From: a virus
Direction: 5' to 3' (one strand)
Length of the DNA: 20,627 bases
Virus record (IMG/VR): IMGVR_UViG_3300044820_000144
Location: 115,592-136,218 of that record
This document shows, one piece after another, positions 2,485 to 13,718 of the stretch. How positions within the stretch are numbered: the stretch's first letter is position 1; every line of letters begins with the position of its first letter. Position numbers and translations under genes: made by a program. Below the pieces are notes generated by a model. It made no database searches. It had not been told where the DNA came from and saw nothing but the letters and a program-made list of their open reading frames with translations.

Positions 2485-3063
2485 ATGCCGGGACGTCTTG
2501 ATCGTGTGGACTTGAGTGGCCTGTCGGATGAGGCGACATGGCTGTACCTGCAGGAGCGGCTTCGAGTCGGTGACTGGGGGCCGTTGCTGCACGGGGAGCA
2601 GGCGGAGCGGATCCGGTCGCTGCTGGTCGCCGAGCTGAACCACGTGACGAGCGAGTTGTCGGCCCGCGCCTCGGACCTGGCTGTCCTGGAGCAGGAGTGC
2701 CACGCCCAAGGGCCGGCGGGCAAGGCCCGTTGGTTCGAGGCCCAGGCTCCGTACAACGAGTGGCGGGCCAAGGCGATCCGCTTCAAGCGGCTGGTCGAGA
2801 CGCGCCTGGCGGAGACGAAGCGCGCCGAGGTGGTGGTGCGCCGGGAGCGCAACGAGGCGAACGAAGCGTCCCGCAGGGAGGATCAGCGCTCGACGCTGCG
2901 GACGTTGGCGTTGGCGATCGCAGCCCACCAGGACGCCTGCCGCGACCTGGGCATCGAGCCTTCCCAGGCGGACCTGAAGCTGTGGCGGGTGTTGGACGAG
3001 GTGAGCGTGCCGTTGGGTACGGGGACGGCGACGTTGGCTCAGATGCTGGCCCGCTGGTTGTGA
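2485..3063 (+). CDS. hypothetical helical/coiled-coil protein
   Basis: 192-aa ORF with GC-rich third codon positions; purine-rich GGAGAGAG upstream. Confidence 0.85.
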   Translation: MPGRLDRVDLSGLSDEATWLYLQERLRVGDWGPLLHGEQAERIRSLLVAELNHVTSELSARASDLAVLEQECHAQGPAGKARWFEAQAPYNEWRAKAIRFKRLVETRLAETKRAEVVVRRERNEANEASRREDQRSTLRTLALAIAAHQDACRDLGIEPSQADLKLWRVLDEVSVPLGTGTATLAQMLARWL

Positions 3064-3069
3064 CCTGGC

Positions 3070-3107
3070 GCGGCGCCCCCGGGGTACCGTCCGAGGGCGC
3101 CGCTTCT
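3070..3107 (+). terminator. putative intrinsic terminator
   Basis: gcggcgccc (3070-3078) pairs with gggcgccgc (3095-3103), a 9-bp stem followed by ttct, 6 nt after the stop at 3063. Confidence 0.5.
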
Positions 3108-3206
3108 CCAGACACGGCCGTGAGCTGCATGCACCACTCCGCCGAGACTCGGCGTGACCCGAGGGCGGTCAGGCTAGTTGGCGTCCCAGCGTGATCGCGC
3201 CGATAT

Positions 3207-3416
3207 ATGCCGATGCGCAGATGGATCTACGACTTCGTGACGGGCCCGCGGTTCGGGGCGTACCGGCTGGCGGCATGGGTGGTGCAGATCCCGATCGCCA
3301 TCACGACGTCGCTACAGTCGTCGGTGGCCTACCTGGTGTTCTTGTCCCTGGCTGCGCTGGTGGAGTCGGCGCTGACGGACGTGATCGAGGGCTGGAAGTT
3401 CACGGAGGAGAGCTGA
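3207..3416 (+). CDS. small membrane protein
   Basis: Two hydrophobic stretches (LAAWVVQIPIAI; VAYLVFLSLAALV) in 69 aa. Confidence 0.7.
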   Translation: MPMRRWIYDFVTGPRFGAYRLAAWVVQIPIAITTSLQSSVAYLVFLSLAALVESALTDVIEGWKFTEES

Positions 3417-3418
3417 TC

Positions 3419-3559
3419 GTGGCGGAGTCGAAGCCGTTGACGGCGAAGCAGCAGGAGGAGCAGGACGCCTACGTGCAGAGCCTGGTCGACGCGGCGCCCC
3501 CGCTGACGCCGGCGCAGCAGCTGCTGGTCCTCCAGCTCTTCACGGCACGTCGCCCCTGA
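3419..3559 (+). CDS. small hypothetical protein (LVDxAPPLT motif)
   Basis: GTG 3419 after GGAGGAG. MAESKPLTAKQQEEQDAYVQSLVDAAPPLTPAQQLLVLQLF resembles small proteins of actinobacterial mobile elements (recalled, not searched). Confidence 0.7.
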   Translation: MAESKPLTAKQQEEQDAYVQSLVDAAPPLTPAQQLLVLQLFTARRP

Positions 3560-5438: not shown

Positions 5439-5654
5439 TCAGTCGTCGCCCCGCCGCGCCATGGCGCGGCGGGTGGCCTCCCATGCTCTCGCCCACCGGG
5501 CCCGGGTCTCCGGGCTGATCGTGGACTTGCGGTCGGTGACGCACTCGCAGCCCATGTACCGGCACACGCACCGCGGTTCGTTCCAGTGCCAGTCCCCGTC
5601 GGGCTCGCAGCCGCAGCCGCAGGTGCACACGGGGCGGGACTCCGGGGGCTTCAC
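5439..5654 (-). CDS. small Cys-rich protein
   Basis: GTG 5654 in GTGA overlap with the upstream stop; CTCGCGC...HW...CVC...GCEC. Confidence 0.65.
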   Translation of the reverse strand: MKPPESRPVCTCGCGCEPDGDWHWNEPRCVCRYMGCECVTDRKSTISPETRARWARAWEATRRAMARRGDD

Positions 5655-5980
5655 GTGGCTGCGTTCGGGTCGGGCTGCAGCATCCAGTACTTCTGCTCGG
5701 GGGGCTGCCAGAGCAGCAGGTTGGCGTCCTCCATGGCGACCAGGCCGTCGGCCACCTCCAGGGGCGGGATGCCCTGCTCGTCGGAGATGACCTTGATGCT
5801 GATCGGGGGCCCGTCCTCCACCCGGTACGGCCACTGGATCATCGCGAGCTTGGACTCCTCGTCGGCGCCCATCTCCTCCAGGCGGCGCAGGATTCGCGCG
5901 GGGCTCTCGACGAGAAGGCGGTTGCGGTGGCTCGGCCTGGGGTTACGAGCCGGCTTCCGAACCCTCTTCTTCTTCGGCAT
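5651..5980 (-). CDS. hypothetical protein (basic N-terminus, possible winged helix)
   Basis: Starts MPKKKRVRK; ISIKVISDEQGIPPLEVADGLVAMEDANLLLW has wHTH-like spacing. Confidence 0.7.
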   Translation of the reverse strand: MPKKKRVRKPARNPRPSHRNRLLVESPARILRRLEEMGADEESKLAMIQWPYRVEDGPPISIKVISDEQGIPPLEVADGLVAMEDANLLLWQPPEQKYWMLQPDPNAAT

Positions 5981-6476
5981 GAGCAGACCCTATGGGGTCG
6001 GCGGCGGCTGCTTCAGCTTGCTGGGCGGCGAGGATCTCGGCGGTGAACTTCTCCCGCCAGTAGTCCTTCGCCTCCTCCCAGGCGTCGTCGCCGATCCGCT
6101 CGCGCCACTCCTGCTCCCGCCGCTCCAGCATCTGGACCATGGTCGCGGCGGCCTGGGCCTTGTCGTCGCGGATCTTCTGCAGTCGCTCGGCGATACCGAC
6201 AAGGGTCTCATGGGCAACGAGTGCGTCAGCTTCGGTGACGGAGCGTATCTCGTGGGAGTAGGCCCCGCTGGTCCTGATGATCGACCCGAAGATCAGTGGG
6301 GGGCGACGGTCATACTCGTCGAAACCCACCCATGCCGTGATGACTTGGGCGTCGCCCACCTGTGTGACCTTGACCACACGAGAGGGCATGTCCTCGAACA
6401 TCGCCGCCCAGGTCAGAAGATCGATGGGGTCCCCGGAGCGATCGAAATACATCATCCTGATCCTACCTTCGGACAT
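5943..6476 (-). CDS. phage-type hypothetical protein
   Basis: YFDRSGDPI...W...ITAWVGFD...PPLIF...TEADALVAH pattern of a common uncharacterised phage family (recalled). CACCCT+7 nt before the ATG. Confidence 0.85.
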   Translation of the reverse strand: MSEGRIRMMYFDRSGDPIDLLTWAAMFEDMPSRVVKVTQVGDAQVITAWVGFDEYDRRPPLIFGSIIRTSGAYSHEIRSVTEADALVAHETLVGIAERLQKIRDDKAQAAATMVQMLERREQEWRERIGDDAWEEAKDYWREKFTAEILAAQQAEAAAADPIGSAHAEEEEGSEAGS

Positions 6477-7315: not shown

Positions 7316-7513
7316 TCATCGAAACGGTGCAGTCGTGGTCATGGCGTCGGGGCGCCCGGCCCGGCAGGGCGGGCAGGGCAGCGGGTGGCCGTACACGGTG
7401 GCCAGCCTGTAGCAGTCCATGCCGTCGTCGGGGTGGCACAGCGGATCATCGTTCACGAACGCCGTGCCGCGCACCGGCCGGCCGCAGTGCGCGCACGCCG
7501 GCGGGCCCATCAC
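7316..7513 (-). CDS. small zinc-binding protein
   Basis: CAHC...LCHPD...DCYRL...H..CPPC; GTGA coupling. Confidence 0.75.
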   Translation of the reverse strand: MMGPPACAHCGRPVRGTAFVNDDPLCHPDDGMDCYRLATVYGHPLPCPPCRAGRPDAMTTTAPFR

Positions 7514-8082
7514 CCGTCCATGCCGCGGGCCCAGCGGATCACGTCGACAGCGAGCCGGGCCCGCTCGGCCAGGGTCCTGGCCGCCTTCTCCACTTCGGTC
7601 ACGACGTCCTCCTCAGTCCAGACGCGGTCACCGGGTAGGGGAGGTAGTCGATCCAGCAGTTCGTCGAACTCCAGCTTCAGCATGACGTCCTGCACGCATC
7701 CGGCCCTCTCCCCATGGCGTATCCGGTCTTCGGCCGACCAGCGGTCCCCGGCGTGTCCGGTGTCGAAGCCGACCCATCCCTCCAGGTCTGGTCCGTAGGT
7801 CCAGCCCCCGGGGACGGGGACGTCCACGTGGTCGTAGCCTCGGACGTAGTTGATCCCGGGCCGGCCGTCGGGCCAGAGGAACGGCTGGCCGGGCAGCATC
7901 TCCGCCGCCTCGGCGAGGAGCAGGTCTGGATGGTCGACCGGCAGTCTCACGTACCCGTTCAGGTTGCCGAACGGGGACACGTACAGGCAGCAGGGCAGGC
8001 CGTCGACCACCCACGCCCGGTAGACCTCGCGGTTGCTGAACTGGGCGATCTGGATCCCCGGCTGGTCGGGTTGGTGGGTCAT
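7510..8082 (-). CDS. conserved phage hypothetical protein
   Basis: NGYV.LP.DHP...V.VPGGWTY...WVGFDTGH.GD matches a widespread uncharacterised phage family (recalled); ATGA coupling. Confidence 0.85.
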   Translation of the reverse strand: MTHQPDQPGIQIAQFSNREVYRAWVVDGLPCCLYVSPFGNLNGYVRLPVDHPDLLLAEAAEMLPGQPFLWPDGRPGINYVRGYDHVDVPVPGGWTYGPDLEGWVGFDTGHAGDRWSAEDRIRHGERAGCVQDVMLKLEFDELLDRLPPLPGDRVWTEEDVVTEVEKAARTLAERARLAVDVIRWARGMDG

Positions 8083-8612
8083 CGTGCCTCCAGGCGCTGG
8101 CGTGCGCGCAGGGCAGCCGCCACCAACTGCTCGGCGATCGCCTCGCTCCCGCTGCTCGTGAACTGGATCAGCAGGCGCATCACCTGCGGATCCTCCAGGA
8201 CCCTCTCGTCCTCCAGGTCGAACTCCTGCCCACCCCCGATGGTCATGGATCGGACCAGCAGGCGCATCACCTCAGCCAGGCTCAACCGGGGCCCGGTCCG
8301 CTCGCACCCGTACTGGCAGGCCAGGTCACCCCGCCCGTTGCCCCACACCCGGCAGATCAGCGGACGCACGTCGTAGACGGTGCACCGCCCCCACCGGTCC
8401 AGGGCAGCACAGTGCAGCTGCGCGCCGGCGTTCCACGCCTGCGCCCGGACCGAGGAGAACGGCTCGATGTGCACGCCCCGCGCTTCGATCCGCTCACGCT
8501 CCGCCTCGGACATGTTGATCGGCCCGCACGCGCTCCAGCACAGCCCCTGACACTGGATCGTGGGCAGCTCCGCGTACAGGGCCTCCAGGGCCGCGATGGT
8601 CGCCTCGTTCAT
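8079..8612 (-). CDS. YkgJ family Cys-cluster (Zn/Fe-chelating) protein
   Basis: CQGLCWSACG...CAALD..GRCTVYDVRPLICR..G signature. Confidence 0.85.
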   Translation of the reverse strand: MNEATIAALEALYAELPTIQCQGLCWSACGPINMSEAERERIEARGVHIEPFSSVRAQAWNAGAQLHCAALDRWGRCTVYDVRPLICRVWGNGRGDLACQYGCERTGPRLSLAEVMRLLVRSMTIGGGQEFDLEDERVLEDPQVMRLLIQFTSSGSEAIAEQLVAAALRARQRLEAR

Positions 8613-9358
8613 CGCGGTCCGTCCGGGTCCAGGGCCCGCAGCGTGTAGTACCCCGCCGCCTTGATCTCTTTCCGGTACTTGACCAGCTGGTGCACGCACC
8701 GCCCCGACGCCTTCGCGTGGAACGTGACCGGCGGCCCGTCGGGCACGTACAGGTTCCAGGTGAACGTCTCACGGGCCTGACGGGGCGTCACCACCCCCAA
8801 GCAGGCCGGGCACCTGGTGGGGTCGGCGTACCGCTCCATCTGCTCGATCTGCACGTTGGCGCGCTCCACCTCCACCTCCTCACGGCACGGCGACGGCTCC
8901 CCGCACGCCCGGCACACCGGGTAGTGCTCATTCGGGTAGAAGTCGAACGAGCCCTGGTTCCCGTGCCAGAGCCACCCCCGGAACTCCAGGCCCTGGCGCT
9001 CGGCGACGTCGCGGGCCTTCACCGGGTCGACGGGACGCGGGTGCGGCGCGAACCAGTACATCGCCGGGCCCCGGCCGCCGAACAGGTGCTGGTCCCACCA
9101 GCGGGCCAGCCTGTCCTTGCCCTGCAGCTGGGACTTCGCCTCGGCGATCTCCAGCCGGGCGCGGGCCACGAAGACCCGTTCGTCCTCGGTCCACTCGTCC
9201 TCGGGGATCTCCTGAATCTCGATCAGCTCGTACACCCGGTGCGCCCAGGGGATCAGGGTGCCGATCGCGAACTCGTCGGTCTCGGGTGCACCTGGGCGCC
9301 GCGTGAACCAGGAGACGACGCCGCGGGGGCGCCAGTCGTAGGGCAGACCGTGACTCAT
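8609..9358 (-). CDS. hypothetical protein with two Cys/His knuckles
   Basis: HYPVCRACGEPSPC and CPAC...FH...C; ATGA overlaps at both ends. Confidence 0.85.
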   Translation of the reverse strand: MSHGLPYDWRPRGVVSWFTRRPGAPETDEFAIGTLIPWAHRVYELIEIQEIPEDEWTEDERVFVARARLEIAEAKSQLQGKDRLARWWDQHLFGGRGPAMYWFAPHPRPVDPVKARDVAERQGLEFRGWLWHGNQGSFDFYPNEHYPVCRACGEPSPCREEVEVERANVQIEQMERYADPTRCPACLGVVTPRQARETFTWNLYVPDGPPVTFHAKASGRCVHQLVKYRKEIKAAGYYTLRALDPDGPR

Positions 9359-9513
9359 GACAGCCGTGTCGCCCCCCGCTCGAAGCCTTCGGCGATCCCC
9401 CGCAGCGTCTCGGCCAGGTGCTCGGTGGTTAGGCCGTGGGCGGACCACACTGCGACGGTCCCGTCCGTGAGCAGGGAGACCGTGAGGATGGCCTCGGGGT
9501 GAGATTCGGACAC
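9355..9513 (-). CDS. 52-aa hypothetical protein (not in the ORF track)
   Basis: MSESHPEAILTVSLLTDGTVAVWSAHGLTTEHLAETLRGIAEGFERGATRLS. GTG lies 6 nt after TAGGCT; ATGA overlap with the 9358 gene. Confidence 0.75.
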   Translation of the reverse strand: MSESHPEAILTVSLLTDGTVAVWSAHGLTTEHLAETLRGIAEGFERGATRLS

Positions 9514-9581
9514 CCACACAGCCTAGACATCGTTACCCTATGGTGTCTGCTTGTCACCCCATCGTGTTCGACGGAGGCATC

Positions 9582-9806
9582 ATGGGCACCCTGAAGACGC
9601 TCAGCCACGAAGGCGACACCCGGATCAGCTGGGACGCCGACAACCCCGACGAGGTCGCGGTCGCCCGCGAGGCGTTCCTGCGCCTGATTCGCAGGGGCTA
9701 CCTCGCGTACACCGCCGACGGCGACGAGGCTCGCGGTAGCCAGATCCACGCCTTCGACCCCGAAGCGGAGACCGTCGTCCTGGTGCCGGCGCTGCAGGGC
9801 GGCTGA
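9582..9806 (+). CDS. small Gly-Gly-terminated protein, putative ubiquitin-like (beta-grasp) fold
   Basis: GGAGG RBS; 74 aa; apparent beta-beta-alpha-beta-beta-beta pattern; ends ETVVLVPALQGG-stop. The gene is well supported, the fold is inferred. Confidence 0.7.
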   Translation: MGTLKTLSHEGDTRISWDADNPDEVAVAREAFLRLIRRGYLAYTADGDEARGSQIHAFDPEAETVVLVPALQGG

Positions 9807-9808
9807 CC

Positions 9809-10396
9809 GTGCCGTGGTTCGACGAGGGCTTGGCCTACCCCACTACCCCCTTGACCGCCCCCTACGTCCAGCTGTGGACGGTGACCAGCACGAGCATCTC
9901 CACCATGGGGTGGAACCCCGTCGCCGACACCGCGGCCAGCTGGACCACCACGAGCACCTGGGCCTGGCGCGTGGACAGCTGGACCATGCAATCCGGGTGG
10001 CCCATGCTGATCAGCAACGGGGTGCCCCCACCGCAGCCGGTCCTGGTCGAGACACCGGACGAGGTCCTGGTCCGGCGGGCGGCTAGGGCTGCGGCGTTCG
10101 ATCGGGCGGAGGAGTTGCTGCTGTCCCTGTGCAGCGCCGACCAGCGGGCCACCTACCGGGCGGAGGGATGGATCGATGGGCTGACCAACAAGGGGACTCC
10201 CTACCGGATCCAGTGCCGGATGGGGATCTCGGGGAACGTCGAGCTGTTCCGCGGGGACCACTGGGTCTGCCTGTGCGCCCACCCCCCGGCGTCCCTGCCC
10301 CTCGCGGACATCCTGCTGGGCCAGAAACTGGCCCTGGAGACCGACGAGGACTACTTCGTGTCCACCGCCAACGTCCACGGCCGCAGAGCCGCGTGA
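9809..10396 (+). CDS. hypothetical protein with S/T/W-rich N-terminus and CxCxHP...D..LxQK C-terminal domain
   Basis: Starts 2 bp after the GG-protein stop; contains RAEELL, YRI, GNV, CLCAHP, LPLADILLGQKLALETDE and TAN motifs. Confidence 0.8.
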   Translation: MPWFDEGLAYPTTPLTAPYVQLWTVTSTSISTMGWNPVADTAASWTTTSTWAWRVDSWTMQSGWPMLISNGVPPPQPVLVETPDEVLVRRAARAAAFDRAEELLLSLCSADQRATYRAEGWIDGLTNKGTPYRIQCRMGISGNVELFRGDHWVCLCAHPPASLPLADILLGQKLALETDEDYFVSTANVHGRRAA

Positions 10397-10411
10397 ACCT
10401 CGGGGAGCACC

Positions 10412-10621
10412 ATGACCGACCAGCCGCCAGATCCGCTCGCCGGCCCGCCCAAGAAGACGATCGAGGTCGTGGTGGCCCGCCTGTCCCTGCCGTGTGGCAT
10501 TCGCGGCCTCGATGTCCTGTGCACCGGCCTGGAGGAGATGTACGGGGGCCCGCTGTACTTCCGGTCCGATGGCACCGACCCGCCCAATGAGCTGGTCATC
10601 GTCCGGAAGGAGGCCCCGTGA
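10412..10621 (+). CDS. hypothetical protein
   Basis: GGGGAG RBS; 69 aa; GTGA coupling to the next gene. Confidence 0.75.
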   Translation: MTDQPPDPLAGPPKKTIEVVVARLSLPCGIRGLDVLCTGLEEMYGGPLYFRSDGTDPPNELVIVRKEAP

Positions 10622-11013
10622 CCCGCATCACCCAGGAGGAGGTGAACGCCATCGTCCTGGCGCTGGTCGGGGACGAGGACCTCACCGAGTTCGCGCGGGT
10701 CGCCGAAGCCATCCGCGCCGGCGCCGTGGAGGTGACCGTGCGACAGCACTCGGTCAGCCTGCGGGTCCTGCCGCGCGGGGCACGAGCAGACTTCGCACAG
10801 CGGCTGCGCGAGCTGCGGGAGGCCGCGGGCAAGACCGTGGACCAGATCAGCGCCGAGATCGAGGTCTCCGATTCGTCCCTGATCCGCGCCCTGAACGGTT
10901 ACGCCCTGCCCCAGTGGCCCATCATCAGGGCCCTGATCGAGGCATGCGGCGGCAGCCCCGAGGACTACCGGGCGGACTGGCGCGCGGCCTACGACGACCG
11001 GGCGCGGGGATGA
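10618..11013 (+). CDS. XRE-type helix-turn-helix protein with an extra N-terminal module
   Basis: FAQRLRELREAAGKTVDQIS...VSDSSLIRALNG..LP.W...ALIEACG fits the actinobacterial XRE HTH pattern; AAGGAGG RBS. Confidence 0.85.
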   Translation: MTRITQEEVNAIVLALVGDEDLTEFARVAEAIRAGAVEVTVRQHSVSLRVLPRGARADFAQRLRELREAAGKTVDQISAEIEVSDSSLIRALNGYALPQWPIIRALIEACGGSPEDYRADWRAAYDDRARG

Positions 11014-11282
11014 CTGGCCCGTGGCGGGGCTGGTCGAGGGACTGGTGCTGCCGGCCCAACGCCTCCACCGTCCGCTGGTACACCAGCCGCCATGCCTGGG
11101 TGTGCCTGGGCGACCTCGTCACGAAGTGCCGGGTGCGGCGCCTGTGCGAGGCCCACGAACGGTGGATCGACCCGCCCACCAACCCCTACGCCCACCTGCA
11201 CGTCAGTACCTGCCAGCCATCTGCCTGCCCAGCCTGCTGGTGGAACGCCGGGTGGCGCCCCGACCACCTCGACCAGGGGTGA
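11010..11282 (+). CDS. small Cys/Trp-rich hypothetical protein
   Basis: ATGA coupling at 11010; MTGPWRGWSRDWCC...LCEAH...CQPSACPACWW. Confidence 0.55.
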   Translation: MTGPWRGWSRDWCCRPNASTVRWYTSRHAWVCLGDLVTKCRVRRLCEAHERWIDPPTNPYAHLHVSTCQPSACPACWWNAGWRPDHLDQG

Positions 11283-11286
11283 GCGG

Positions 11287-11742
11287 TTACTGCGGCGTGA
11301 CGATCCGCGGACCCGTCGGGGCGGTACCGGCGTGGGTGGCCCGCACGACGGCGTTCATCTGGGTGACCAGCTGGTGCAGGTCCCCCTGGCAGGTGTCGAT
11401 GTCGGCGAGCAGGTGGTGCAGGTCGTTCTGCGCGTCGGTCAGCTCCGCCACCACGTGGGACAGGTGAGCCAGGGCCTGGGCGGTCTCCTCGTGGGTGGCG
11501 TTGATCGTCGCCTCGGTCCGGGCCGTGGCCAGCTTGGAGCCCAGCAGGATCACCGACAGCAGGACCAGCTGCAGGAACGTCTGCGCGGTCCACGCCACGA
11601 TGATGATGAGGCTGCCGGTGCCCAGCGCGGCCGGCAGCGACACCAACGCCAACCCGGCGAACACGTAGGCGCACGCCATCGTGCCCACCGCCTCGGTGAT
11701 GATCAGGGCAACCCGTTCGTTGAACGCCCTCACCCCGCTCAC
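11287..11742 (-). CDS. DUF1003-like membrane protein with C-terminal coiled coil
   Basis: FNERVALIITEAVGTMACAYVF...IVAWTAQTFLQLVLLSVI pattern; GTGA coupling to the peptidase. Confidence 0.8.
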   Translation of the reverse strand: MSGVRAFNERVALIITEAVGTMACAYVFAGLALVSLPAALGTGSLIIIVAWTAQTFLQLVLLSVILLGSKLATARTEATINATHEETAQALAHLSHVVAELTDAQNDLHHLLADIDTCQGDLHQLVTQMNAVVRATHAGTAPTGPRIVTPQ

Positions 11743-12674
11743 AGCCCGACCGCCGTCAGCCACGCACGCGCCGCGCCCGCCAGACGAGCCGAGTAGCCCG
11801 CGTGCGGGCGATCCACCCAGCCCTGCTCGCGCAGCACCGCAGCCAGCGCCGCAGCCTCCGGTCCCACCGGCGCCGGCACAGGACCCGGCACGGGAGGCAC
11901 CGGCACGGGCAGGGGGGAGACGGGAAACGGGTTGGGCTCACCGGTCAGCGCGGCCAGCTCCTCCCCGAGCCCGTGCAGATCGACCCCCGACGGCGTCGTC
12001 CCGGCCGCCGTCAACCACTCCGGCGTGATCACAGCCCACGCCTCGTCGATGTACACGGCCGCGAAGTCCGGGAGCATCGACTGCACCCGACCCCACGTGG
12101 TCGCGCGGTACTGGCGGGGATCGAACGCACCCGCGTGGATGGCGTGGCCGCCCTCGATGCCGCCGTCCTTGCGTACCAGCGCCCACGGCTTGCCGGCGTT
12201 GAACTGGGTCATCGCGACCCGCGGGAACTTGATCCCCACCTGCAGCGACCCGAACACGTCGATCGCTGCCTTCATCGCGGCCGGGTCGGTGTGGTCGACC
12301 TTCGCGAACGCCAGGATCCTGTGCCCGGCGACGCCGGTCTTGCGCCAGTACGACAGGGCGTCCTGCATCACCGTGCCCTGGTCGGTGGCCGGGTCGTCGC
12401 GGTTGAAGCCCGTGACGTCGGCGTAGCCCTGCAGCAGGGCCTCCAGGCTCACCTCCACCGGCGACCCGGCGTAGGTGGTCCACGCGATGATCGCGTGGCC
12501 GATCGCCGCCCACACGCAGTCGCCGTACTGGTCGTTGCCGTACATCGGCCACGAGCCGACCTTCGACAGCCAGTCCCGCTGCTCCGGCGTGGTGGGCGCC
12601 CCGGTCAGGTGCGGGGCCAGGCGCAGCGCCGGCTTGGTGGGGTCCGGGTCGAGCTTGCCGTGGAAGAGGGTCAT
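11739..12674 (-). CDS. papain-like cysteine peptidase (candidate lysin)
   Basis: DW...MYGNDQYGDC (Cys), GGHAI (His) and TWG, then a Pro-rich linker and a short C-terminal helical domain. Confidence 0.75.
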   Translation of the reverse strand: MTLFHGKLDPDPTKPALRLAPHLTGAPTTPEQRDWLSKVGSWPMYGNDQYGDCVWAAIGHAIIAWTTYAGSPVEVSLEALLQGYADVTGFNRDDPATDQGTVMQDALSYWRKTGVAGHRILAFAKVDHTDPAAMKAAIDVFGSLQVGIKFPRVAMTQFNAGKPWALVRKDGGIEGGHAIHAGAFDPRQYRATTWGRVQSMLPDFAAVYIDEAWAVITPEWLTAAGTTPSGVDLHGLGEELAALTGEPNPFPVSPLPVPVPPVPGPVPAPVGPEAAALAAVLREQGWVDRPHAGYSARLAGAARAWLTAVGL

Positions 12675-13125: not shown

Positions 13126-13485
13126 CTAGTGCAACCTTCCGGGGTACCCCTCCTGACGCAGCCGCCGCCGTCGGTGGCTGCGCGGCCCACAGCTCGGACA
13201 CCAGGGTCCGGTGACGGTGCCGTCGTCGAACTCCAGGCACTCGGCCTCGTCCAGATCCTCGGGGCTGAAGCTGCGCCCGCAGTGGGCGCAGCTGGTCCAC
13301 TCCACCTCCTCCCGCGGGCGGGCCGGGGTCGCGCGCACGGTCATCCCCTCCTCGGTGACCGTGATCACGACCTGGCCGTCGCGGATGCCCTGCAGGACGA
13401 CCTCATAGTCAGCGGGCTCACCCCGAAAGATCATCTTCTCGGCGGCCTCGTTGATGAACTCCTGGCTGATCGGGGTGGGGCTCAT
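13126..13485 (-). CDS. zinc-ribbon protein with an N-terminal module shared with 10618-11013
   Basis: CAHC...WCPSC; ungapped N-terminal similarity to the XRE protein. Confidence 0.8.
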   Translation of the reverse strand: MSPTPISQEFINEAAEKMIFRGEPADYEVVLQGIRDGQVVITVTEEGMTVRATPARPREEVEWTSCAHCGRSFSPEDLDEAECLEFDDGTVTGPWCPSCGPRSHRRRRLRQEGYPGRLH

Positions 13486-13712
13486 AGCCAGCTCTCCACC
13501 ACGACCGGCGGGTCGCTCGGGTCGCGGGGGAAGGGCGTGTCGGCCTGCGGCGGGATCGCCGCCCGCGCCGACTCCAGGTCATCGGTGACGGCCAGGATCC
13601 GCCCCGGGTGGGGGCCGCCCGGTCCCACGACGTGCTCGCGGACCAGGAACTCGGCCTCCGGGTAGTCATCGGGCCGGTGGTAGATCGTGTAGACGGACAG
13701 GCTGCCGGGCAT
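13482..13712 (-). CDS. conserved phage hypothetical protein
   Basis: YTIYHRPDDYP...LESARAAIP...RDPSDPPVVVESWL pattern of a widespread small uncharacterised family (recalled). Confidence 0.85.
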   Translation of the reverse strand: MPGSLSVYTIYHRPDDYPEAEFLVREHVVGPGGPHPGRILAVTDDLESARAAIPPQADTPFPRDPSDPPVVVESWL

Positions 13713-13718
13713 GAGCGT

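Follow-up and report, generated by a model that had tools for sequence, protein, structure and literature searches.

We analysed the terminal 20.6 kb (20,627 nt, hereafter the window) of the virus record IMGVR_UViG_3300044820_000144 (136,218 bp, about 95% complete, 69% GC), termed a soil phage. A peat metagenome is the only DNA dataset listed for it and its probable source, and no RNA dataset is listed. Two adjacent plus-strand genes in this window encode P0001, a candidate ubiquitin-like (Ubl) protein of 74 amino acids (aa), and a larger partner, P0002, whose GTG start lies 2 nt past the stop codon of the Ubl gene (Table 1). An earlier note on this DNA had described a GG-ended 74-aa open reading frame (ORF) followed 2 nt downstream by a 195-aa ORF containing CLCAHP, the two heading a divergent operon, and had suggested a minimal Ubl conjugation or decoy module. 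Both ORFs were confirmed, the first by its translation, its GGAGG site, its codon composition and its large protein family, and a short gap separates the pair from divergent minus-strand genes, of which the upstream ORFs have their ends at 9517 and 9519.

Table 1. Features of the two-gene locus in the window
Feature	Coordinates	Strand	Basis or remarks
Divergent intergenic region, 62 bp	9520..9581	.	5' of the pair; sequence read directly
Ribosome-binding site GGAGG (Shine-Dalgarno)	9573-9577	+	4 nt 5' of ATG 9582
Gene for P0001, 74 aa, predicted ubiquitin-like (beta-grasp-type), end LVPALQGG-stop	9582..9806	+	Translation; G+C at third codon positions (GC3); family; model
Gly73-Gly74 codons of P0001	9798..9803	+	Invariant in alignment A3
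Gene for P0002, 195 aa, GTG start	9809..10396	+	Translation; at least 105 homologous clusters
N-terminal region of P0002	9809..10060	+	GC3 0.95; same composition and start motif in homologues
C-terminal domain of P0002, 111 aa (residues 85-195), predicted UBC/RWD-like topology a-a-b4-loop-a-a	10061..10396	+	
Cys156-Ala-His158, candidate catalytic Cys and His, end of strand b4	10274..10282	+	Conservation; predicted contacts
Two downstream genes: 69-aa ORF (10412-10621) and HTH_31 regulator (10618-11013)	10412..11013	+	Pfam HTH_31 8.5e-13

GC3 is 0.92 within the P0001 ORF versus 0.53 immediately upstream, so that ATG 9582 is the likely start, and the translation ends in ETVVLVPALQGG directly before the stop codon. 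An exhaustive profile search identified 2,125 representatives of the P0001 family (counted at 50% identity) at E ≤ 1e-3, of which 575 also pass E ≤ 1e-10; nearly all are 70-140 aa in length, with matches extending to the protein C terminus. Four positions, G11, W17, G73 and G74, are invariant in an alignment of 119 sequences (A3), and the size of the family together with the invariant G73 and G74 argues that the P0001 ORF did not arise by chance. Among the 148 best true matches, 125 end exactly in GG, 18 carry 1-45 residues past the GG and 4 end in a single Gly. P0145 and P0236 are natural homologues with such an extension. The conservation of the terminal GG, on which the earlier note had staked its reading, is thus borne out, and a tail of this kind, ending in a conserved Gly or Gly-Gly at or near the protein end, is a hallmark of ubiquitin-like modifiers and carriers. 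Family members with an N-terminal extension carry no Pfam domain. The top profile matches, P0113 (3,939 aa) and P0114 (1,930 aa), were rejected as spurious tandem-repeat ORFs that cover only Ubl positions 2-37, 45 and 21 times. Both are built from a unit of about 95 aa repeated dozens of times with little variation, owe their rank to summed weak partial matches and are probably wrong-frame or repeat-DNA ORFs.

The AlphaFold2 model of P0001, computed with the family alignment, has a predicted local distance difference test score (pLDDT) of 89.6 and an order of bb-a-b-b followed by a loose tail (strands 2-8 and 11-17, helix 22-37, strands 40-45 and 64-69; pLDDT 62 in the last block), in agreement with the secondary structure that had been guessed from the letters. 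Its best structural matches in the PDB are beta-grasp proteins (SUMO, PB1, MoaD, TtuB and protein L), all of them weak, and based on model and matches P0001 is predicted to have a beta-grasp fold, as had been proposed. No Pfam, PHROG or PADLOC model matched P0001, and no Pfam model, ThiS included, matched any of the 119 relatives. Real MoaD/ThiS sequences, 23 in number and taken from Burkholderiales genomes, were compared to A3 with hhalign, which gave P=0.0025 at a probability of only 12%, aligning the half from the helix to the GG tail and placing IlvPxlxGG of the P0001 family over AfFPPVTGG of MoaD/ThiS. Among the named Atlas clusters, the nearest is a ThiS family and scores a weak 0.76. 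P0001 resembles MoaD and ThiS in size, in its predicted fold and in a hydrophobic tail with Pro at -5, a hydrophobic residue at -3 and Gly-Gly (VLVPALQGG in P0001 versus AFFPPVTGG in MoaD, read from real genomes). At the level of sequence, we regard homology of the P0001 family to MoaD/ThiS as a lead, not as proof.

The partner gene is shortened to 130 aa (P0006) in the public gene call, whereas the full frame comprises 195 aa and contains both CLCAHP and DILLGQKLALETDE. Its first 84 residues are rich in Thr, Ser and Trp with nearly no charged residues, and the high GC3 of this region (Table 1) argues that it is coding. Throughout the partner family, N termini of 60-150 residues are rich in Thr, Ser, Ala, Trp, Tyr and Cys, variable in length, invariably begin with Met-Pro and an aromatic residue (MP-aromatic) and belong to no known family. 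The N-terminal region of P0002 may be disordered, or may serve in target recognition or self-assembly. The P0002 architecture recurs in at least 105 clusters: the MP-aromatic start is followed by a Thr/Ser-rich tract that varies, by a charged linker and by the conserved domain, which is about 108 aa long. The C terminus of P0002 (10382-10393) and of its homologues P0005-P0109 mostly carries an Ala-Ala or similar tail (ANRHAA, GRRAA, RAVA, PVAA), which is loose in the model (pLDDT 51) and outside the interface predicted below. This tail recalls C-terminal ClpXP degrons of the ssrA type, an analogy that would imply regulated turnover.

In an alignment of 89 partner sequences, Q112, N143, C156, P164, D167, Q172 and A187 (full-length numbering) are invariant, and Y132, R133, H158, K173, E180 and N188 are nearly so. 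Cys156 is present in 89/89 and the adjacent His158 in at least 90%, in line with the Cys and His conservation that the earlier note had proposed to examine. The domain model (pLDDT 92.8) shows a helix, a second helix, four strands, a short loop starting from C156-x-H158, two helices and a short strand. Foldseek against the PDB gave no real match for this domain, with the RWD domain of Mad1 in second place at a probability of 0.33, and its top five VIA structural matches were RWD, Ubc9, GCN2-RWD and UEV, all weak, followed at lower rank by E2S, UBE2F, FANCL and BubB. Based on the UBC/RWD topology and on RWD, Ubc9 and UEV as top structural matches, we tentatively describe P0002 as a divergent E2-like protein without an HPN motif, whose C-terminal domain is predicted to be UBC/RWD-like in topology. 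Eukaryotic E2 (UBC), RWD and UEV domains (Ubc9, RWDD2) are built of a helix, a four-stranded antiparallel sheet, a loop and helices, an order that the P0002 model may share, with the conserved Cys between strand 4 and the next helix. In the model of P0002, Cys156 lies at the end of strand 4 with the conserved His158 nearby, which is the bacterial pattern: E2-like proteins of bacteria have been described as lacking HPN and having a conserved His on the C-terminal side of the Cys (PMC1779556, table row 6d), and in BilB His151 is next to the catalytic Cys138 (PMC10557695).

Sequence comparisons of the partner returned little. No Pfam family, UQ_con, RWD and Prok-E2 included, matched any of the 89 partner members, and hhalign against Prok-E2_A, the sole Prok-E2 family compared in this way, gave a probability of 0.04% and no similarity. 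PADLOC and PDB profile searches yielded no match, and the look-alikes of the partner in the ESM Atlas are viral or unnamed only. The partner, for which the earlier note had considered an unrecognised Cys-dependent ligase or transferase, is probably not of an unknown kind, given that weak matches place it among UBC/RWD-like, divergent E2-like proteins.

Hidden Markov models of both families were run on the six-frame ORFs of every locus fetched. A Ubl gene lies upstream on the same strand in all 20 partner-seeded loci (14 IMG/VR contigs, three database look-ups and three contigs of metagenome-assembled genomes), and the partner lies downstream in all eight Ubl-seeded loci for which this could be determined, a ninth contig ending too early. 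The adjacency seen in the window thus recurs in 28/28 determinable loci. In 16/21 pairs the partner start falls between -11 and +6 nt relative to the stop codon of the Ubl gene, and from this arrangement in the DNA the two genes are predicted to be translationally coupled or co-translated. Fusion of the two genes by read-through or frameshifting was ruled out: the gap after the Ubl stop varies (1, 2, 3 or 6 nt, or overlap), and the frame is therefore not constant. No fused form turned up in a search above 352 aa; the evidence from this is weak. The apparent Ubl-partner fusion P0029 (259 aa, ENA) most likely reflects an assembly frameshift, with the Ubl family pattern lost just before its FDP motif.

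Clustering of ORFs within 6 kb of the pair in 20 loci revealed no further family in more than 6 loci, and in a whole-genome comparison of four unrelated carrier phages (45, 48, 65 and 69% GC) the pair were the only genes common to all four. From the linkage, the lack of other shared neighbours and the four-genome comparison, we conclude that the pair is, as judged from genome sequences, an autonomous, horizontally mobile phage cassette. The module is also found in Bradyrhizobium and Burkholderiales assemblies and is rare in cellular genomes (3 loci in a narrow pattern scan plus one Bradyrhizobium record). An element of Bradyrhizobium sp. 150 (P0013) is the sole cultured carrier encountered. 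DNA and protein searches of 50,697 deposited phage records matched only two metagenomic records and no cultured phage. Some loci depart from the simple arrangement. One IMG/VR phage (L021) carries two complete pairs (2824-3538 and 5508-6306), one of them with an IHAG tail and a short partner of 138 aa. Virus Rctr197k (KX853510.1, 3704-6983; L001) has a tandem Ubl of two domains with IPG at its end, as well as two paralogues of the partner, adjoining a CRISPR array and a transposase gene. On a 47.8-kb contig (L075; 1223-2941, 5214-5663) the pair is flanked by genes for an AAA/nSTAND-type NTPase and for a Macro-domain protein, its Ubl having a 45-residue extension past the GG and an unrelated 173-aa gene separating the two genes of the module.

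We searched six carrier genomes, 91-100% complete, for ThiF (PF00899) and Prok-JAB (PF14464). No ThiF-type E1, as encoded by Bil, Bub and CBASS type II operons, was detected in the six genomes, and for JAB/JAMM peptidases, sought with PF14464 only, the result was likewise negative, so that the lack of both, previously noted for the window, extends to these genomes. The single ThiF match, in the phage's own genome and at profile positions 11-54, is not an E1 and corresponds to the Rossmann motif VLVTGAGGSIG of a 384-aa CapD-like dehydratase. The gene behind this match, at G000:C1:31166-32416 (L008 1411-2565), encodes a CapD-like NAD-dependent polysaccharide dehydratase/epimerase, with related ORFs in two other carriers.

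The complex of P0001 with the P0002 domain was modelled with both family alignments in three runs, alongside three controls. The interaction prediction score from aligned errors (ipSAE) was 0.82, 0.80 and 0.82, compared to 0.01 for the best control; the mark applied to this score is reached by 58/80 solved complexes and 2/110 mismatched pairs, a calibration that holds only roughly here because our own alignments were used. The runs had at least 95% of their contacts in common, with a partner pLDDT of at least 87 and 88 contacts. The predicted interface involves Ubl residues 5-12, 41-54, 66 and 68-74 and, in domain numbering, partner residues 72-80 (including C72, H74 and P80), 83, 86-91 and 98-106 as well as the first helix. 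Residues N59, C72, P80, D83, Q88 and A103 of the domain, which correspond to N143, C156, P164, D167, Q172 and A187 of the full-length protein, are located in or beside this interface, and the invariant partner residues would therefore surround the docked GG tail. The tail itself, Ubl residues 68-74, is predicted to touch domain residues 72-80 and so to lie on the Cys-His loop, the proximity to the CxHP Cys that the earlier note had proposed to look for. The body of the Ubl packs on the helix after the Cys loop in an arrangement that resembles closed E2~Ub. The partner would thus bind its cognate Ubl with the tail toward the Cys, as does an E2; the prediction supports binding and does not show binding or chemistry.

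Conservation of a free Gly-Gly suggests that chemistry takes place on the carboxylate of the C terminus, and the invariant Cys with its His beside the GG tail points to a thioester carrier or transferase. We favour, at about an even chance, a minimal Ubl/E2-like module that acts by thioester transfer and depends on a host E1 of the ThiF/MoeB type. Beyond the computed fold, conservation, linkage and docking, we infer activation, a thioester, transfer, targets and a biological role as follows. P0001 would be a beta-grasp Ubl with its free C-terminal Gly-Gly as the functional end, and P0002 its cognate partner, with a nucleophilic Cys156 aided by His158 in the segment past strand 4 of a UBC/RWD (E2-like) domain. 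Because the carrier phages have no E1, a host ThiF/MoeB-type enzyme would adenylate the Gly-Gly carboxylate, which is plausible because the tail is MoaD-like (compare FPPVTGG of MoaD). The Ubl would then be handed as a thioester to Cys156 and from there, early in infection, to a protein of the phage or of the host, with host remodelling or a blunted defence as possible outcomes. The Thr/Ser/Trp-rich N-terminal region may pick the target or drive self-assembly. Conjugation by SAMP in archaea and by TtuB in Thermus requires no more than a MoeB-like E1.

Bacterial ubiquitination-like systems described to date all include an E1 (PMC11601596). The Bil (BilABCD) and Bub operons always encode an E1, usually together with a JAB or serine peptidase, and serve cellular anti-phage functions (PMC10557695, PMC11601596), whereas the phage pair has neither E1 nor peptidase, is carried by phages, shows no sequence similarity to these systems and includes a partner with a Thr/Ser-rich N-terminal region. 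It differs from MoaD/ThiS with MoeB/ThiF by the unmatched Pfam ThiS, by a partner that is not MoaE- or ThiG-like, by the lack of an encoded E1 and by its setting among early/regulatory phage genes instead of genes for cofactor synthesis. The only phage Ubl described before with a conserved C-terminal Gly and a neighbouring Cys or metallo enzyme is TAPI (tail assembly protein I) of lambda and T1. TAPI belongs to a tail module, carries a fused C-terminal domain and has TAPK JAB/NlpC peptidases as its partners (PMC1779556), unlike the present pair, which stands among regulatory or replication genes and has an E2-like partner, not a peptidase. In the literature searched, we found no account of a phage that encodes a Ubl together with an E2-like protein, which does not prove that none exists elsewhere.

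Three other explanations were weighed. The pair could be a stable, non-catalytic heterodimer that mimics E2~Ubl as a decoy or inhibitor and traps or blocks E1/E2-based systems of the host (for example CBASS Cap2, Bil or Bub) or MoeB/ThiF, without any transfer. The very confident and extensive predicted interface, with its 88 contacts, agrees with this, as do a cassette without E1, JAB or another enzyme and its behaviour as mobile accessory genes in early/regulatory regions of unrelated phages. In addition, the Ubl pathways known from bacteria protect against phages (PMC11601596, PMC10557695), which renders these pathways plausible targets. Yet a binding mimic needs no invariant Cys, near-invariant His and invariant Asp, Gln and Asn around the site where the tail docks, and the strict conservation of a free terminal Gly would be left unexplained. 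We hold this explanation to be unlikely, while still the most serious of the three.

Considerably less probable in our judgement is a sulfur relay, in which a ThiS/MoaD-type carrier is thiocarboxylated by host MoeB/ThiF and Cys156 of the partner thiolates a nucleic acid or metabolite. It draws on the same alignment of the tail and C-terminal half with real MoaD (P=0.0025), on ThiS as the nearest, weakly scoring Atlas cluster, and on MoaD-MoaE (1fm0, one of the structural matches of P0001), in which the GG tail likewise enters the active site of the partner. The partner fold, however, is like UBC/RWD and unlike MoaE, ThiG or PP-loop sulfurtransferases, no other gene for sulfur metabolism or for the modification of nucleic acids accompanies the pair, and Pfam ThiS matches 0/119 family members. 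We see an equally small chance that the partner acts specifically on the Ubl tail, as a peptidase or transpeptidase of the Cys/His type, either trimming precursors with extensions past the GG or cutting host Ubl conjugates, with P0001 as its substrate or regulator. The invariant Cys, Asp, Gln and Asn and the conserved His could make up a papain-like catalytic set, the GG tail is predicted to lie in a groove above the Cys-His loop as in a complex of a deubiquitinase with its product, and the approximately 12% of the family with 1-45 residues past the GG would need processing with no JAB present. Against such a role, 85% of the family, P0001 included, already end in GG and need no processing, the structural matches contain no peptidase fold, and the C-x-H spacing and residue order are unlike those of papain-like enzymes.

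Most genes around the pair belong to no known family. The 69-aa ORF and the HTH_31 regulator downstream are probably part of the same operon and stand outside the conserved module, not being among the neighbours common to the 20 compared loci. A consensus scan of 9300-11300 detected neither a sigma-70-like promoter nor a terminator, a negative that carries no information in a phage of high GC. A 54-aa ORF with high GC3 (9355-9519, minus strand) is apparently the first gene of the minus-strand operon, and the divergent neighbours at 8079-8699, 7510-8082, 8609-9361 and 11739-12674 (all minus strand) include one putative metal-chelating CxxCxxCC (PF03692) protein and three whose sole matches are PHROGs without an assigned function (phrog_2164, 26381 and 19005). 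A family of small proteins of about 78-90 aa (13485-13718, minus strand, in the window; L009 4688-4939; L016 7071-7346), with the motif Y-D/H-H/R-P-x-D-F/Y-P, a C-terminal DDPxIxExWL and no Pfam match, occurs near the module in 6/20 loci and is present in 3/4 of the compared genomes. An actinobacterial host, as considered in the earlier note, would be a guess from the 69% GC.

Bacterial Ubl conjugation as described so far is an anti-phage weapon of the host and always comes with an E1. Here we identify on the phage side a pair of families that is very large, lacks any annotation and recurs in thousands of uncultured phages, neither family being covered by a Pfam, PHROG or PADLOC model. It is conceivable, though we lean against it, that uncultured phages of many lineages carry a self-sufficient two-gene tagging device, a Ubl with a minimal E2-like enzyme, which, with housekeeping MoeB/ThiF of the host as its E1 or by some E1-independent route, covalently marks host or phage proteins during infection. 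If true, a ubiquitin-like conjugation system in prokaryotes would for the first time be known to be encoded by a virus, as the counterpart to the Bil, Bub and CBASS conjugation defences of the host. Even if its action is non-covalent, the pair is a strongly co-evolving and directly testable module. If active, it would show the lower size limit of a Ubl-transfer system, link housekeeping sulfur-carrier E1 enzymes with bacterial protein modification, and supply phage effectors of a new class, or a compact and orthogonal tool for tagging.
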